A DNA stretch of 64,000 nt from a phage. Of the stretch, positions 40,168 to 49,377 are shown one piece after another (the stretch's first letter is position 1; each line of letters opens with the position of its first letter). The position numbers and the translations under genes were made by a program. Under the pieces are notes generated by a model. That model saw only the letters and a list, made by a program, of their open reading frames with translations. It had not been told where the DNA came from and did no database searches. The stretch is taken from NCBI GenBank assembly GCA_029220445.1, contig GCA_029220445.1_3666.1, one strand, 5' to 3'.

Positions 40168-40196
40168 AAAAGGAAAAGGGAGGCTTGCGCCTCCCT
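40168..40196 (-). terminator. intrinsic terminator for minus-strand transcripts (gggaggc-ttgc-gcctccc + T-run)
   Basis: Perfect hairpin followed by TTTTCCTTTT on minus strand. Confidence 0.6.
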
Positions 40197-40203
40197 ATAC
40201 TTG

Positions 40204-41187
40204 TTAGATTATCTGAATCAGGGTGTTTTTCATCTCTTCTCTGGTACGGATGTTGTTACGATCACGAACAACAGATCCACAACCTTCACAGCGGTATGTT
40301 TTAAATGCACTCAGCTGAGTATATGCCAAAGCTTCTTCCTCGTGAAGGTGTTCTCCACCACAGCGTGGGCAACGAACCTTTGGCTCCTCGTCCTGGTAGT
40401 ACAATGACATGTTTGGGTGCTGCTTAGCAAACGGGCGAGCCAGCAAATACAGTCCTTCCAGAGACAGGATATCACCAACATTATACTCACGCATCTGTTT
40501 AAATGCCTCAAGATCACCATGGACACACTTGATCCACATTTCAAATGTGTGATCAATCAGTTTCTGTCGGGCCAGTTGGAAGTATTTGCATGCATACTCC
40601 AAAGTGTTTGCATTCAAACGAAATGCCTTTTTGATCATTTTAAGGGTGTCAACATCTTTGTAGGGGCTTGTTGGAGGCAACCCGTGAAATGCAAATCGTT
40701 GGTTGGCCCACCCGCAGTCAAAACCTGAATTGTGGGCTACTGCGACATCGCATTTATCCAGATAATACCACAAATCCTGAATCAATTCGAGATCATTGTG
40801 AATATCCTCATCCCACATTTTGTAATCAGGAAGAGCGCAGTCAACCACACTAGGACTGTCTAACCACTTACCTGCGAAAGTTAGCATGTAGGGCATAATT
40901 TCAATACCGCAGGTTTGAATGTTGGTCTTATAGTGCCCAAAGAACCAGCCGTTTGTTGGAGATGTCTCTGTATCATACACCCAAACTTTAGCACCTTTGT
41001 GCTCTTCAAGGAAGCGCTCCGTTGCTTCTCCTACAATCTCTGACATATTCTCTTGTGCACGTTTAAGCTGTAGTCGGATCCAGCTCTCACGTGACTCACG
41101 GCCTAAAAATTCACGAGCAATTTGTCTATTAGTGTATCCCTGTTGCTTTAGTGTTAAAATTTGCTCAAGAGTTAACTTTGTCATCAT
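40204..41187 (-). CDS. DEDD-type 3'-5' exonuclease-like protein with N-terminal HTH and C-terminal zinc ribbon (327 aa)
   Basis: Exo I-like YDTET, Exo II-like AHNSGFD, HTH LKQQGYTNRQIAREF, CPRCGG...CEGCG. Confidence 0.55.
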   Translation of the reverse strand: MMTKLTLEQILTLKQQGYTNRQIAREFLGRESRESWIRLQLKRAQENMSEIVGEATERFLEEHKGAKVWVYDTETSPTNGWFFGHYKTNIQTCGIEIMPYMLTFAGKWLDSPSVVDCALPDYKMWDEDIHNDLELIQDLWYYLDKCDVAVAHNSGFDCGWANQRFAFHGLPPTSPYKDVDTLKMIKKAFRLNANTLEYACKYFQLARQKLIDHTFEMWIKCVHGDLEAFKQMREYNVGDILSLEGLYLLARPFAKQHPNMSLYYQDEEPKVRCPRCGGEHLHEEEALAYTQLSAFKTYRCEGCGSVVRDRNNIRTREEMKNTLIQII

Positions 41188-41199
41188 CGTTAAGATTCC

Positions 41200-41421
41200 T
41201 TAGTAAAACTGAAGAATGTCTTTTAAAGCGAAGTCACGATATTCGCCCTTGTCTACATCGAAGGCACGCATCAACCACTGCTCTTCTTTATGATACTCTG
41301 TAGAGCCAAACCATAAATTAGGCTCAGTAACGCAGCGATCTGCAACAACACCTTTCCAGTTACGGTATTTCATCCTGATCAGAACTGAATCGCAAGGATT
41401 GAATACCTTTTTCATCCCCAT
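41200..41421 (-). CDS. hypothetical protein (73 aa)
   Basis: ORF; overlaps 3' end of upstream gene, start uncertain. Confidence 0.4.
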   Translation of the reverse strand: MGMKKVFNPCDSVLIRMKYRNWKGVVADRCVTEPNLWFGSTEYHKEEQWLMRAFDVDKGEYRDFALKDILQFY

Positions 41422-41965
41422 AGAAATCTCTCTCCTCAGTTTTCTTTATAAACTCCTGCATGTAGAACTCAATAGCCTCATGCTTGGTGCACTCCGGATT
41501 AATGACAAGATTGAGATCTGATTCTGCTCGTGCAATGATCGTAGCTTTAGAGCATCTCCTCAAGAACTTTGTCATATCATCTCTGTAGTTTTTGTGGAGC
41601 GGGAAGTCGCTGTAGTCTTTCTCCAAATAGTCAGCCATCCGGCGCAACGCCTCTGATAAACTGCAATCTGTATACTCGTTACAGTATTTCATCCAGTATT
41701 TAAGCACATACCCCTCAAAGGTATTAGTGCATTGGGACAAAACACCCCTGCAACGACCAGTCAGATGGTCATGATCCAAACAAGGCTTACGAAGTGGCTC
41801 GCACAAGATAGGATCAAGACCATCCTGCTCCTCTGACAATTCTTTTCGAAAGTTGGCTATGTCCTTAGAATCTTTTAACCACCCGTTATGAACGGGGGCT
41901 TTGACAGCTTTCTTTCTTATTTTACGCTTTGCGATAATCCCTCCAGATGCGCCCTGCCTATCCAA
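41360..41965 (-). CDS. T4 endonuclease VII-like junction-resolving nuclease (start uncertain)
   Basis: CLDHDHLTGRCRGVLSQCTNTFEG matches EndoVII H-N-H-like core (HLDHDH...G.VRGLLC..CN..EG). Confidence 0.55.
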   Translation of the reverse strand: MDRQGASGGIIAKRKIRKKAVKAPVHNGWLKDSKDIANFRKELSEEQDGLDPILCEPLRKPCLDHDHLTGRCRGVLSQCTNTFEGYVLKYWMKYCNEYTDCSLSEALRRMADYLEKDYSDFPLHKNYRDDMTKFLRRCSKATIIARAESDLNLVINPECTKHEAIEFYMQEFIKKTEERDFYGDEKGIQSLRFSSDQDEIP

Positions 41966-42546
41966 TAAGCATCTGCGAGATCGGCCTTACCTTGTACCAA
42001 ATTGATCCCATCTAGGAACCCAGGTTCAGATACTTCGCAGGCCTTAACCATCAACTTTTTATCCATCGTAACAGGTTTCTTCACAGTATGCTCTTTACCT
42101 GTCTTTTTGTCAAGCTTTTTCTTCTCCTCGAAAGCAAGTTCCTCAGGAAGATGACCACGAGCAAACTTTTTGGCAGTTGTTGGTGTCACTGTGTGGACCT
42201 TAAACAGGCCGTCATTTTCACAATCAGCTAAGGCATCCCAAAGCATAACTTCAAGACCGTAAAACAACCCAGCCAGTTCACGTGTGGCATCCCCGCGTGA
42301 TCCAAAGGAAAGCCCTTCCATAACTACAGTGTCAACGCCGTGCGTGTGGATATAATATCTGACCTGTTTGCAGATCCAGTCAATACGCTCAGCAGCTGTT
42401 GCAAAAGAAACCGTCCCTGGTTTCTTCTCTTTTGCAGATGAGCTTTGAGTTCGTAACACAACCTTATGAACAGGCTTTCCATCGTCCCATACAACGCAAG
42501 CTGTGTGTGTCAACGACTGGTCTATGGATAATAGACGCTCTCTCAT
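41917..42546 (-). CDS. RuvC-like Holliday junction resolvase (209 aa)
   Basis: LSIDQSLTHTA (Asp motif), VVMEG (Glu), ADLADAYWI (D..D) in RuvC order. Confidence 0.6.
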   Translation of the reverse strand: MRERLLSIDQSLTHTACVVWDDGKPVHKVVLRTQSSSAKEKKPGTVSFATAAERIDWICKQVRYYIHTHGVDTVVMEGLSFGSRGDATRELAGLFYGLEVMLWDALADCENDGLFKVHTVTPTTAKKFARGHLPEELAFEEKKKLDKKTGKEHTVKKPVTMDKKLMVKACEVSEPGFLDGINLVQGKADLADAYWIGRAHLEGLSQSVK

Positions 42547-42878
42547 GCTTCCTCATCCTCCTCTCCTTCATCAGGAGCATAAGCCTTATCTTTGAACAAT
42601 ACGAGAGAGCAAAGCTTAACATCTGTTTCCACACTGGTGAACATGCATAACCGCTCGCCCTCAATCAGCTCACAATCCTCTTTTAAAACAGCAGACCATA
42701 CACGGTCATCTGCGTAATCATCCGTGTACAGGATGTATGAAATGGTGTCATCTTCATACAACCGCCACATACCTGTGGCAACAACGAATGTATTTTTTGT
42801 TTTAAGTGTCCCTGTTGTGTGATCATCCTCAAAAACAGCTTCCATAATTGCGTTATCTACAGAATTTTTAGTCATCAA
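42543..42878 (-). CDS. hypothetical protein (111 aa)
   Basis: ORF with overlapping stop/start. Confidence 0.5.
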   Translation of the reverse strand: MMTKNSVDNAIMEAVFEDDHTTGTLKTKNTFVVATGMWRLYEDDTISYILYTDDYADDRVWSAVLKEDCELIEGERLCMFTSVETDVKLCSLVLFKDKAYAPDEGEEDEEA

Positions 42879-44014
42879 ATTGCTCCAACATTTCTAAGAA
42901 CGTTAACAAGTTTTGTTTGATCATTGAATGTTCGCTTCATATACAAACAGTCAAAAATTATACTCATCCATTGACCTACGGAGATTCTACGATCAATACC
43001 ATTGAAGTCAGTATACTTAACAACACCTTTCGGGAACCACTTCTTGTACTGATCAATAATAGCCACCCACATCTCCTTTGGAGTGCTGCACTGAGACAGT
43101 AGGTAGAATGCTGAGGCATCTCCGAACTTACCCTTACCGATAAGTCCTTGATACGGCTTGATGTTGTCAGCAGAGTCACCACACAGCATTTGGTATCCGA
43201 AGAACAGCATTCCGTAACCACCAACCTCTCCATTAGGCTTCATGAAGATGTTCCCCATACCGTTATCGATCAGCATAGGGGTTTCCCTTACAAAATCTCC
43301 CTTATCGTTTCGCATGGGATCGAACACAAGCCCCGGTAGTGTTCTTTGGTCCTTATCAATAGAGATAATAAACTTGTTGAACTTACCTGTTTTTTGGTAG
43401 TGGTTCCAACCTTCAAATTGCTGGATAGCTAACCAGTCATCAGCCTCGATACCGTTGATCACTTGAGCATTATACTGCTTTTGGAGATACTGTCTTGCAT
43501 CTTCAAGCAGCAGTGGTCGAAGAGTATTGTTACGGTTGGCTTTATATCTTTCCGGCATGGGAAGATCTAGTCTGAAATTACCTGTGCCTCCAAGTACCCC
43601 CACGCACCGATCTTCCGGAATACCGAGATAATTAAGGACTGCATTAGCTTTACACTTAATTGTGTGCAAGCAATTCTCTACAGGATCAGGGGTTTGGATA
43701 TCCAAGACATCGAAATCTTCTCGTGTCCACGGAATAAACTCCTTGCCAGCCTTTTTACATGCAGCTTCACGGTTGGTATTCTCAGCTTTTAACCAACCAC
43801 CAACGGTGTTCTTCTGCCGCCCCCAGAACTCTGTTCGTGTTTTAAACATCTTCTTACGTCCGGAGGCTTTGTGTGTTACCTCAATTGTCCTTTTTTCACA
43901 ACTTGCTGCAGCTTGATATGCAACCTGATCGAAGTCATAATAAACTATAGCGTCAGGTTCAAGAAGATCAGCCAGACAATCTATGGACTCAATAAGTGGA
44001 TATTCTCTACTCAA
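42875..44014 (-). CDS. 5'-3' exonuclease / flap endonuclease (FEN, RNase H-like)
   Basis: GIEADDWLA and H3TH-like LCGDSADNIKPYQGLIGKGK motifs. Confidence 0.7.
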   Translation of the reverse strand: MSREYPLIESIDCLADLLEPDAIVYYDFDQVAYQAAASCEKRTIEVTHKASGRKKMFKTRTEFWGRQKNTVGGWLKAENTNREAACKKAGKEFIPWTREDFDVLDIQTPDPVENCLHTIKCKANAVLNYLGIPEDRCVGVLGGTGNFRLDLPMPERYKANRNNTLRPLLLEDARQYLQKQYNAQVINGIEADDWLAIQQFEGWNHYQKTGKFNKFIISIDKDQRTLPGLVFDPMRNDKGDFVRETPMLIDNGMGNIFMKPNGEVGGYGMLFFGYQMLCGDSADNIKPYQGLIGKGKFGDASAFYLLSQCSTPKEMWVAIIDQYKKWFPKGVVKYTDFNGIDRRISVGQWMSIIFDCLYMKRTFNDQTKLVNVLRNVGAI

Positions 44015-44315
44015 AGACCCTCCTGTTAGTTATTCTGCAAGATGGTTGGATGCTGTAATGGAATGCATCATCACTTTCTGCAATAAGTGACTCAACATCC
44101 CAATACTTTTCAAAAAGGAACGGATTAGAACCCCAGTGATGAGTTATTTTCATCAAGGAGTCTGGTATCAGATAACCAGAGATCTTAACTACATCGCCAG
44201 GTTGAATTGTGTTTTCATGAAGGTTGCTTGCCTTCTTCAGGATCATACCTTTATGATTCTCGTTTGCATACAACTGGACAATATCTTTATCTTCAACAAT
44301 AAAAATTTTAAGCAT
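44007..44315 (-). CDS. hypothetical protein (102 aa)
   Basis: ORF on minus strand. Confidence 0.5.
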   Translation of the reverse strand: MLKIFIVEDKDIVQLYANENHKGMILKKASNLHENTIQPGDVVKISGYLIPDSLMKITHHWGSNPFLFEKYWDVESLIAESDDAFHYSIQPSCRITNRRVFE

Positions 44316-44374
44316 ATCTAGTTCTCCTGGTTTATAAATATCTGAACGATAATATCAGATTAATAACACTTTTG

Positions 44375-44668
44375 TCAAGACTTTTTAGTCTTTCTTGGAG
44401 AGCTTTTTGTTGATCTTTTCCTTTTGTGGTAGATTCCAAGTGCAGCGTTTTCTTGGGCGCACGTTTTAACAGTTCTCAGACAAGAACTTTCAGCTTTAGG
44501 CAGGTTTAACTCCCACCAACCAAGCCAGTAAAGTTCTGATTCAGACAACTGCTCAGATTCAGCCTTCCGATACAAGGTTCGCATACCTCTGATGATATCG
44601 TCCAGAGGTGTATCGAATACAAAAGCTGTCTTATCGAATTTCTCTTTTACAGGTCTCTTAGCCATCAA
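44375..44668 (-). CDS. hypothetical basic protein (97 aa)
   Basis: ORF; Lys/Arg/Ser-rich C-terminus. Confidence 0.45.
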   Translation of the reverse strand: MMAKRPVKEKFDKTAFVFDTPLDDIIRGMRTLYRKAESEQLSESELYWLGWWELNLPKAESSCLRTVKTCAQENAALGIYHKRKRSTKSSPRKTKKS

Positions 44669-45122
44669 GGTAACCCTCTATCCACGAAAAGTCAGTCTTC
44701 CATTCTGGAACTTTACTAAGCTCACGCCACTCTGCAAAGCAGTCTCGGTAATACGCCTCTGCCATACCTTTGGTGATCTTATTCACCTTAGCCAACTGAT
44801 TAACTGCCTGAGCATACTTTCCACGGATATTTGCTAACCCAGGATGCACCGATGTGTGACAATCTGGGCACAACGCTATCAGTCCGACAAGCCGGATCAC
44901 TCCCTCTTCGAAAGTGTAAAGTTCATGGCACTCCACTGGATGTTTGCTACCTTTACCGCCGCACACCTCACAAGTGTAGTTGGCTTCTCTATAGCACTTC
45001 TTACGGATCTTATCCCACTCACTCTTCTTCACAGCGTTTCGGAGGTTATTATACCAAGCTGTTTCTGGGATCAATTGCACAATAAGCCTGCGTTCAGACT
45101 TCATTAAACGTCCGTCTTCCAC
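44658..45122 (-). CDS. zinc-binding protein, HNH-like Cys/His pattern (154 aa)
   Basis: CEVCGG...ECHE...CPDCH...VH spacing resembles His-Me finger; not confirmed. Confidence 0.45.
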   Translation of the reverse strand: MEDGRLMKSERRLIVQLIPETAWYNNLRNAVKKSEWDKIRKKCYREANYTCEVCGGKGSKHPVECHELYTFEEGVIRLVGLIALCPDCHTSVHPGLANIRGKYAQAVNQLAKVNKITKGMAEAYYRDCFAEWRELSKVPEWKTDFSWIEGYLDG

Positions 45123-48615: not shown

Positions 48616-49377
48616 TTAAAGTTCCATAAAGTTTTCTACAGTTTCAATAAATGCTTTATCAGAGAAAGCGTCAACAGCACCGTTAAACCATACAGGGATC
48701 CCGCGATCCTCATATTGATAAAGGTCGCTACGTGAAATGCCACTTCCATCTGCACTCTGCGAATCATACTTGTTTACAATCAGCAGTTTTGTTCCTTTAC
48801 AAGTAGCAGGAAACAATTCCCAGTTAAAATTAATAACTGTGTTAGAACAACCCACTAGGATCACCATATCATTGCTGGTGAGAGATGTCAACAGGTCATA
48901 CATGTCTGTATACTTAGGAGCAACCTCACCGAAGAACACTACATTGGGCTTAACCCAAGTATACTTGCCTGTATCTACCTCCGTGTATCCGATATTTTTA
49001 ATTACATCATTACCTTCAGCATCTTCGTAGGTGATTTCAGGCAAATACCCGTGGACATGTAAAATATCTTCATGTTTTACACCAGCACGCTCCAGCAAAT
49101 CATCTACATTGGTGGTAAGGTTGATCACACGACCAGACCAGCGGGAATACCACTCAGCGATCCGAAGATGTGCAAGGTTAGGATCAACACTGCCCAGAGC
49201 TACACGACGTGCATTGTAAAAGTCATGCACCTTATAGTAGTTCTTGGCAAAGGTGTGGATGTTGCACACCTCATCGATGCTGAAATTCTCCCACATTGCA
49301 GTGCTACCAGATCGGAAGGTGGGAATACCAGATTCTGCGCTCAAACCAGCACCAGAAATAACAATAAGTCGTCGCAT
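48616..49377 (-). CDS. Sir2-family (sirtuin-like) NAD-dependent enzyme lacking the canonical Cys4 zinc ribbon (253 aa)
   Basis: GAGLSAESGIPTFR, FYNARR, TTNVDDLLERAG, HVHG, VVFFGE, ILVGCS in sirtuin order; no CxxC pairs between HG and VVFFGE. Confidence 0.7.
   Translation of the reverse strand: MRRLIVISGAGLSAESGIPTFRSGSTAMWENFSIDEVCNIHTFAKNYYKVHDFYNARRVALGSVDPNLAHLRIAEWYSRWSGRVINLTTNVDDLLERAGVKHEDILHVHGYLPEITYEDAEGNDVIKNIGYTEVDTGKYTWVKPNVVFFGEVAPKYTDMYDLLTSLTSNDMVILVGCSNTVINFNWELFPATCKGTKLLIVNKYDSQSADGSGISRSDLYQYEDRGIPVWFNGAVDAFSDKAFIETVENFMEL

Follow-up and report, generated by a model that had tools for sequence, protein, structure and literature searches.

Junction resolvases decide whether the branched intermediates of replication and recombination can be packaged, and are central to genome completion in large lytic phages. 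The described systems closest to the one considered here are the RuvC enzymes of Escherichia coli, Thermus thermophilus, and phage bIL67 (PDB:4ld0, 4ktw; PF02075) and endonuclease VII (EndoVII, gp49) of phage T4 (PDB:1en7, 1e7l, 2qnf). Among jumbo phages, the distributions of resolvases of the EndoVII-like and RuvC-like kinds are nearly complementary (Iyer et al., 2021, PMC7824862), and a mycobacteriophage genome paper lists no phage with both a RuvC-like resolvase and endonuclease VII; carrying both is therefore unusual. Here, we consider a stretch of 64,000 nucleotides (contig GCA_029220445.1_3666.1; the window, below), assigned by sequence comparison with deposited genomes to a Vequintavirus, i.e., an rV5-like E. 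coli myophage, in which a RuvC-like gene (positions 41917–42546) and an EndoVII-like gene (41360–41965) are adjacent on the minus strand. Both junction nucleases are intact and maintained by selection. By analogy with the described enzymes, they are probably complementary, the RuvC-like one making paired nicks in four-way junctions, and the zinc-less EndoVII-like one attending to a wider range of branches and to mismatches before packaging, with neither being a relic.

To assess selection, we computed the ratio of nonsynonymous to synonymous substitution rates (dN/dS) in frame, comparing the window with NHEP1 and SYGMH1, two relatives at 93% identity. It was 0.03–0.04 for the RuvC-like gene and 0.09–0.10 for the EndoVII-like gene (non-overlapping parts only); the surrounding genes yielded 0.016 (flap endonuclease (FEN)-type exonuclease), 0.013 (DnaQ-like exonuclease), and 0.03 (ORF95, open reading frame numbering of rV5). 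Since dN/dS is low for both junction nucleases, neither copy has decayed. The preliminary description of this locus had listed a decayed copy among its options, which is contradicted by strong purifying selection on both genes and by conservation of the pair across genera. It had also suggested an alignment of the catalytic residues; this shows that both proteins keep them, and profile and structure searches confirm both families, with no reassignment.

The RuvC-like protein, 209 amino acids long, was identified by PHROG 159 (“RuvC-like Holliday junction resolvase,” 2e-40), by a structure model, and by alignments of homologues. The four catalytic carboxylates of the RuvC family (D7, E66, D138, and D141 in E. 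coli; D8, E71, D145, and D149 in bIL67, where D8 and E71 have been described as catalytic; PMC3864405) have counterparts in D9, E77, D189, and D192, encoded on the minus strand at 42520–42522, 42316–42318, 41980–41982, and 41971–41973, respectively. The homologue search yielded 33 cluster representatives, with the Pfam RuvC domain (PF02075) present in the most distant ones, and in the alignment of 23 sequences E77, D189, and D192, as well as K126 and K163, are invariant, while D9 is absent from one N-terminally truncated sequence only. In weak, single-sequence hhalign comparisons, E77 aligns with E66 of E. coli RuvC, and D9 and E77 with D8 and E71 of bIL67 RuvC; in a PDB search, the same two residues align with the D and E of Deinococcus radiodurans RuvC (profile E-value 0.24). 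A phmmer search of the protein against the PDB gave nothing significant (E-value 1.2 to an unrelated protein). The C-terminal D..D pair is tied to the family via homologue P0031, which covers positions 1–144 of 148 of the Pfam RuvC domain; P0030, P0031, and P0032 score 28.4, 24.0, and 27.4 bits against it, respectively, the cut-off being 22.2.

The AlphaFold2 (AF2) model built from the 23-sequence alignment (predicted local distance difference test, pLDDT, 91.9; predicted template modelling score, pTM, 0.88) has an RNase H-like fold that in structure comparison is closest to RuvC-class resolvases. The RuvC domains of Cas9/Cas12, terminase nucleases, and YqgF ranked lower, no RNase H was among the 60 matches listed, and the matches in BFVD included many viral “RuvC-like resolvase” entries. 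The assignment to the RuvC family rests on this predicted structure together with the bridging homologues. A different function, primer removal by an RNase H-type enzyme in place of junction resolution, might also be proposed for the gene. Annotation as “RNaseH” in Murica, nimi, CM1, and other phages points that way, and RuvC and RNase H do have one superfold; nevertheless, we consider this very improbable, given the RuvC-specific spacing of the D-E-D-D residues, the conserved lysines K126 and K163, and homologues passing the Pfam RuvC threshold. Moreover, the usual primer-removal enzyme is the FEN-type exonuclease, which is adjacent here.

With the E. coli, T. thermophilus, and bIL67 enzymes the RuvC-like protein has in common the D-E-D-D tetrad and the conserved lysines and, as in bIL67, no RuvAB partner is encoded near its gene. 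It differs from them in sequence (16–21% identity only, and no Pfam match of its own), in the pairing of its gene with an EndoVII gene, and in a lysine-rich β-hairpin of 28 residues, eight of them Lys, inserted after the K126 helix and before the K163 motif (approximately residues 132–159; 42070–42153, minus strand). The hairpin strands, residues 139–145 and 152–158, are modelled by AF2 with pLDDT 93–97. The insertion is clade-specific, the short homologues that match Pfam RuvC being without it, and it lies in the same region as the extra positive charge of bIL67 RuvC, which widens branch recognition by that enzyme (PMC3864405). By this analogy, the hairpin probably broadens binding to DNA branches.

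For the EndoVII-like protein, the family assignment is direct: it matches Pfam Endonuclease_7 (PF02945) with E-value 1.5e-7 and 31.6 bits, the gathering cut-off being 23.6, and PHROG 423 “endonuclease VII” at 6e-37, and phmmer aligns it to T4 EndoVII (PDB:1e7d) with E-value 3.5e-4 over T4 residues 37–147. The core noted in the preliminary description, CLDHDH...RGVL...N, is indeed present at residues 62–81, and the catalytic core from D64 to E84 is encoded at 41714–41776 (minus strand). Forty-eight clusters of homologues were found, and residue conservation was counted in 32 homologues: D64, H65, H67, R73, N81, and E84 are invariant and align with T4 D40, H41, H43, R54, N62, and E65, respectively, the “DHHRN” residues being the catalytic set of T4 EndoVII as given in PMC6083498. 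The AF2 model (pLDDT 85, with residues 1–9 and 182–201 disordered) found T4 EndoVII as the sole Foldseek match in the PDB (152–157 aligned columns, target-normalised template modelling score 0.65–0.72, probability 1.0). The predicted T4-type architecture is complete, i.e., it comprises the N-terminal ββα-Me domain and the C-terminal helical domain. Since the whole T4 fold including the latter is matched, and not a catalytic motif joined to some other domain, the protein is unlikely to be merely a homing endonuclease with an EndoVII motif (F-CphI type, PMC6083498), a candidate that we rejected. Thus, T4 gp49 and the EndoVII-like protein have the same full-length fold and catalytic residues; the latter differs in two tails not present in T4, a basic one at the N-terminus and a disordered one at the C-terminus, in its probably non-canonical start, and in the second resolvase alongside.

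Inteins tend to occupy conserved sites of important proteins. One EndoVII homologue, P0171 (446 amino acids), has an apparent intein inside the catalytic LDH|xH motif (…PVLDH-CFDEET…VVGN-CHQNGHIRAVLQREINAFEG…), which may hint that the enzyme is important to its phage.

The EndoVII-like protein departs from T4 in its zinc site. The preliminary description had reported the loss of one Cys of the second CxxC pair; this was a matter of wrong register, as all four T4 zinc cysteines are gone and Cys79 aligns with T4 Leu60. The structural site CX2-4C ... CX2C, formed in T4 by C23, C26, C58, and C61, is absent: the position of C23 is occupied by Asp51 (Asp in 28 and Cys in four of the 32 homologues), that of C26 is deleted, and those of C58 and C61 are occupied by Ser77 and Thr80, with Cys in none of the 32 homologues at any of the last three. 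There is no conserved Cys column among the homologues, and Cys55, Cys62, Cys72, and Cys79 of the protein are non-conserved. Because the T4 zinc site is absent clade-wide, we assign the protein to a zinc-less EndoVII-family lineage and not to the T4-type orthologues. EndoVII of Ralstonia phage RSB1 and that of jumbo phage SP27 are likewise zinc-less; EndoVII of Klebsiella phage Kp2 retains CxxC...HxxC, and that of KVP40-like Va3 retains all four cysteines. A library-wide search with the EndoVII profile gave 362 cluster representatives at E ≤ 1e-10. Among the best 150 of these, 107 were recognised by the motif pattern; 97 of the 107 are without the upstream CxxC, 65 are without any of the T4 cysteine positions, and only seven have the full T4 pattern. 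As a large clade as a whole is devoid of the tetra-Cys site, its loss is, judging from the alignments, a lineage trait and not decay.

According to PMC6083498, which cites Giraud-Panis (1995), the substitutions C23S and C61S abolish DNA binding by T4 EndoVII. Since the cysteines are needed for DNA binding there, the zinc-less lineage must stabilise its fold differently; in the model, computed without zinc, the means of pLDDT over 10-residue blocks are 92–97 for residues 31–90. All this bears on whether one of the two genes is a decaying or inactive remnant. The absence of zinc cysteines essential in T4, together with the lack of a canonical EndoVII start near the Shine–Dalgarno sequence (see below), might be taken as signs of decay. 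Opposed to this are the dN/dS values of both genes (0.09–0.10 and 0.03–0.04), catalytic residues that are invariant across homologues of 25–85% identity, a zinc-less state that is common to most of the best 150 cluster representatives, and the confident zinc-free model, so that a remnant is hardly likely at all.

A bolder proposal, which we regard as doubtful, is that the zinc-free EndoVII proteins form a large, functionally shifted lineage whose members are not Holliday junction resolvases, but act in debranching of mismatches, loops, and forks or in packaging-coupled cutting, in stable subfunctionalisation beside the RuvC-like enzyme. If true, such a shift, accompanied by the gain of the basic N-terminal tail, would explain why the RuvC-like gene, whose last codons contain the ribosome-binding site of EndoVII, is kept immediately upstream in Vequintavirinae and in marine and Aeromonas relatives.

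The reading that we favour, complementary roles of two active enzymes, takes its division of labour from T4 gp49 and from the RuvC proteins of bIL67 and E. coli. The RuvC-like enzyme would be a probable Mg-dependent homodimer with a D-E-D-D active site, introducing paired nicks across four-way junctions. The zinc-less EndoVII-like enzyme, a predicted His-Me-finger nuclease whose C-terminal domain is helical as in T4 and whose N-terminus has an additional basic tail, would serve as a broader debranching and mismatch nuclease that, like T4 gp49, frees replicating concatemers of Y-junctions, loops, and residual branches ahead of packaging. Both exonucleases and the DNA ligase encoded nearby would process and seal the products. 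Several observations weigh against these roles: the RuvC-like protein itself matches nothing in either Pfam or NCBIfam, hhalign of its profile against E. coli RuvC and bIL67 RuvC, each as a single sequence, gives weak E-values of 0.01–0.02, and the zinc ligands required in T4 are all missing from the predicted EndoVII-like nuclease.

Intact active sites in both proteins and their location in the same operon could also reflect simple redundancy, both enzymes resolving the same Holliday junctions and the second serving as a back-up, e.g., against host or competitor inhibitors or under other metal or temperature conditions. Further, bIL67 RuvC is promiscuous on forks and junctions (PMC3864405), and the substrate ranges could overlap widely. 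However, a strictly redundant pair would not be expected to persist across several genera under strong purifying selection, and in other phages the two families hardly ever occur together (PMC7824862); we consider such insurance possible, if somewhat unlikely.

The distribution of the genes provides additional context. The RuvC-like/EndoVII pair and the upstream FEN-type exonuclease are kept in Salmonella phage PVP-SE1, Pectobacterium phage phiTE (with one extra gene between), and Acinetobacter phage ABPH49, and the pair is found outside the subfamily in Pseudoalteromonas phage H101 and Aeromonas phage 2L372X. The RuvC-like gene is also present in Colwellia phage 9A and in the N4-like pYD6-A, with no EndoVII gene in the 6-kb flanks examined. 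The phiKMV-type podophages Kp2 and RSB1 encode the exonuclease, EndoVII, and the polymerase exonuclease subunit, and have no RuvC-like gene. That most phages carry a single junction resolvase, as the preliminary description supposed, fits both PMC7824862 and the single-resolvase relatives pYD6-A, Kp2, and RSB1. In these phiKMV-type Autographiviridae (Klebsiella Kp2, Ralstonia RSB1), the gene order 5′–3′ exonuclease, EndoVII, DnaQ-like subunit is the same as in the rV5-like module, and the RSB1 EndoVII is zinc-less like that of the rV5-like phages; unlike these podophages, the Vequintavirinae examined and H101 have the RuvC-like gene between the exonuclease and EndoVII, and in rV5-like phages ORF95 alone separates it from the exonuclease. 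Judging from gene order, rV5 seems to have a nuclease module of the podophage type to which a RuvC-like gene has been added, with the exonuclease on one side of it and EndoVII on the other.

The recurrence in Kp2 and RSB1, which lack the RuvC-like gene, of the order exonuclease, small open reading frame, EndoVII, polymerase exonuclease subunit raises the question of whether EndoVII and the FEN-type exonuclease act mainly as a pair resembling gp3 and gp6 of T7 that breaks down host DNA for nucleotides, which would leave the RuvC-like protein as the only true recombination resolvase. The T7 record gives gp3 and gp6 roles in both recombination and host-DNA degradation, and the operon lies among nucleotide-metabolism genes (ribonucleotide reductase, NrdD, thymidylate synthase). 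On the other hand, Kp2 and RSB1 have no other recognised resolvase and EndoVII is presumed to be theirs (PMC6083498), the complete T4-type architecture with the C-terminal helical domain is kept, and the material examined contains no direct evidence of rV5-like phages degrading host DNA; this makes the host-DNA role quite unlikely. An anti-defence or defence role was rejected, PADLOC giving no match for either nuclease.

Both genes are already in public annotation and as such are known biology. EndoVII has been annotated in rV5 since the first deposit, and its neighbour is labelled “RuvC-like Holliday junction resolvase” in recent records (NHEP1, MiataMamis, FENT2, Klebsiella K54 phages), while other records call it “RNaseH” (Murica, nimi, CM1, and others) or “hypothetical.” The Vequintavirinae genome papers PMC7344957 and PMC11370258 mention EndoVII alone, the literature searched contained no paper joining “Vequintavirus” with “Holliday junction resolvase,” and in the searchable literature we found no discussion of the dual-resolvase arrangement or of the zinc-free EndoVII lineage. 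The main practical gain is in annotation: ORF96 should be named a RuvC-like resolvase and not “RNaseH” or “hypothetical,” and EndoVII is often truncated by gene callers. Phages of the rV5-like group have a place in phage typing, in biocontrol, and in therapy collections (e.g., BASEL). As they grow easily on E. coli K-12, a subfamily-wide pair of unrelated resolvases offers a tractable system, which could show why a virus needs two of them and whether the EndoVII fold works without structural zinc.

The truncation probably stems from an unusual gene start. The EndoVII reading frame and the RuvC-like gene overlap at the 3′ end of the latter, EndoVII being in frame −1 relative to RuvC. Its sole canonical start, TTG at 41965, from which the preliminary description had counted, would give 201 amino acids and is unlikely to be used: it has no Shine–Dalgarno sequence, and the TTG of phage NHEP1 is followed by an in-frame TAG that is silent in the RuvC frame and leaves no canonical start upstream of the conserved core. 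A Shine–Dalgarno sequence for the EndoVII gene, GGAGG, is found at 41940–41944 (minus strand), where the 3′ end of the RuvC-like gene encodes “LEGLS,” and ATT 41938 and ATC 41935 lie one to four bases past it. The same GGAGGG-AGT-ATC arrangement is seen in PVP-SE1, and the GenBank records place the start at ATT in rV5 and at ATC in PVP-SE1. In more distant relatives, ATG or GTG starts just upstream of the same basic tail, which implies that the tail is translated. Hence, as far as the sequences indicate, EndoVII most likely starts at the non-canonical ATT or ATC after GGAGG, giving 191–192 amino acids, and due to such a start gene callers have cut it to 110 or 159 amino acids in several GenBank records. 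In the RuvC-like protein, the GGAGG is read as the Glu–Gly of the conserved C-terminal “LEGLS,” and this embedding is consistent with translational coupling of the two genes.

As the EndoVII frame is −1 to RuvC and has no good canonical start, we also considered a programmed −1 frameshift that would fuse the two proteins. The overlap contains no slippery heptamer, and P0002, a longer homologue, owes its length only to N-terminal over-extension; the non-canonical ATT or ATC start is the simpler explanation.

The 4.4 kb around these genes show 98.3–98.8% identity to many Vequintavirus genomes, including Phage 203, nimi, rV5, and BASEL phages, and positions 41200–44014 are 99.8% identical to phage nimi. 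All genes are on the minus strand, with coordinates mapping one-to-one to rV5 ORFs 93–99. The RuvC-like and EndoVII-like neighbours of the preliminary description, with both families correctly named, and the remaining reading frames are all present at the coordinates given, on the minus strand. The flanking exonucleases, which it had as a FEN-type gene following and a DEDD-type gene preceding the pair, are both real as well; their order in transcription is the reverse, FEN being early and DEDD last. The seven genes, overlapping or abutting, are transcribed in the order ORF93, FEN-type exonuclease, ORF95, RuvC-like, EndoVII-like, ORF98, DnaQ-like exonuclease, so that ORF95 intervenes between the FEN-type and RuvC-like genes and ORF98 between the EndoVII and DEDD genes. 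A σ70-type promoter-like site upstream of the operon (44349–44378, minus strand; TTGACA-18-TATTAT with TG, 11/12 matches) is, read as 44378–44349, the counterpart of P93 annotated in the rV5 GenBank record, and an intrinsic-terminator-like hairpin directly follows the DnaQ-like gene (40177–40196, minus strand; a stem of 8 bp with six GC pairs, then a T-rich tract). The seven genes appear to form one operon running from a single σ70-type promoter to a single terminator, and the RuvC-like and EndoVII-like genes are probably co-transcribed with both exonuclease genes. Just upstream lie genes for DNA ligase, endolysin, and an HNH protein, and downstream those for a Dam-type methylase, thymidylate synthase, and ribonucleotide reductase.

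The predicted T7-gp6/FEN-type 5′–3′ exonuclease (42875–44014, minus strand; 379 amino acids) matches PHROG 107 “exonuclease” at 2e-71. Its match to Pfam 5_3_exonuc_N (PF02739) has an E-value of 0.05 and 13.7 bits against a cut-off of 34.3, and phmmer against the PDB and the NCBIfam search gave no match. The acidic clusters D27/D29, E190/D192/D193, D220/D222, and D280/D283 are invariant and align with the T7 gp6 motifs NWRKEL..YKANR, EGDD, DKD, and GDITD (hhalign E-value 0.025), and a six-sequence profile gave weak matches to T5 FEN (E-values 0.25–0.44). The protein thus resembles T7 gp6 in the aligned acidic motifs of the FEN superfamily and, weakly by profile, T5 D15; it differs from both in being larger, with approximately 100 extra residues between D27/D29 and the remaining core, and in scoring below the Pfam threshold. 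The DnaQ-like DEDDy 3′–5′ exonuclease (40204–41187, minus strand; 327 amino acids), with an N-terminal helix-turn-helix and a C-terminal zinc ribbon, matches PHROG 403 “DNA polymerase exonuclease subunit” at 1e-110. Its translation contains the Exo I, II, and III motifs (DxE, NxxxFD, YxxxD) as DTE, NSGFD, and YNVGD, and weak profile matches were obtained to RNase_T (23 bits, cut-off 24), DnaQ (E-value 5e-6), and DEDDh (E-value 6.7e-6).

The first gene of the operon, ORF93 (44007–44315, minus strand; 102 amino acids), bears the label “transposase” in PHROG 14449 and in several GenBank records, with no supporting Pfam match; as it is far below transposase size and lacks Pfam support, the label is probably annotation drift. 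ORF95 (42543–42878, minus strand; approximately 110 amino acids, PHROG 7583) separates the RuvC-like gene from the exonuclease in rV5, PVP-SE1, phiTE, and ABPH49. Its acidic C-terminal tail, APDEGEEDEEA, recalls the tails of single-stranded DNA-binding proteins or DNA mimics, and we found no support for the label “putative exodeoxyribonuclease” that it has in nimi. ORF98 (41200–41421, minus strand; 73 amino acids), with weak WYL/SH3-like matches, shares, in a different frame, the last 62 nucleotides of EndoVII, which it also follows in PVP-SE1, phiTE, and ABPH49. The EndoVII tail beneath it (residues 182–201) is disordered and common to close Vequintavirus relatives only.

The module looks like an insertion hot spot, phiTE having an extra gene of 183 amino acids (phiTE_168, L005 5671–6222) between the RuvC-like and EndoVII genes. 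Several HNH genes surround the phiTE module, nimi has an extra HNH gene beside the lysin relative to rV5, and an HNH endonuclease is encoded in the window at 44658–45122. Farther along, a Sir2-like gene (NAD-dependent deacetylase family; 48616–49377, minus strand; PHROG 2162, 2e-108) adjoins nucleotide pyrophosphohydrolase-like and RNA-ligase-like genes upstream of the DNA ligase. Finally, twenty MG0656xx records named as Campylobacter jejuni phages, several of them partial and unannotated, show 98–99% identity here to rV5-like E. coli phages and are probably mislabelled or contaminant assemblies.

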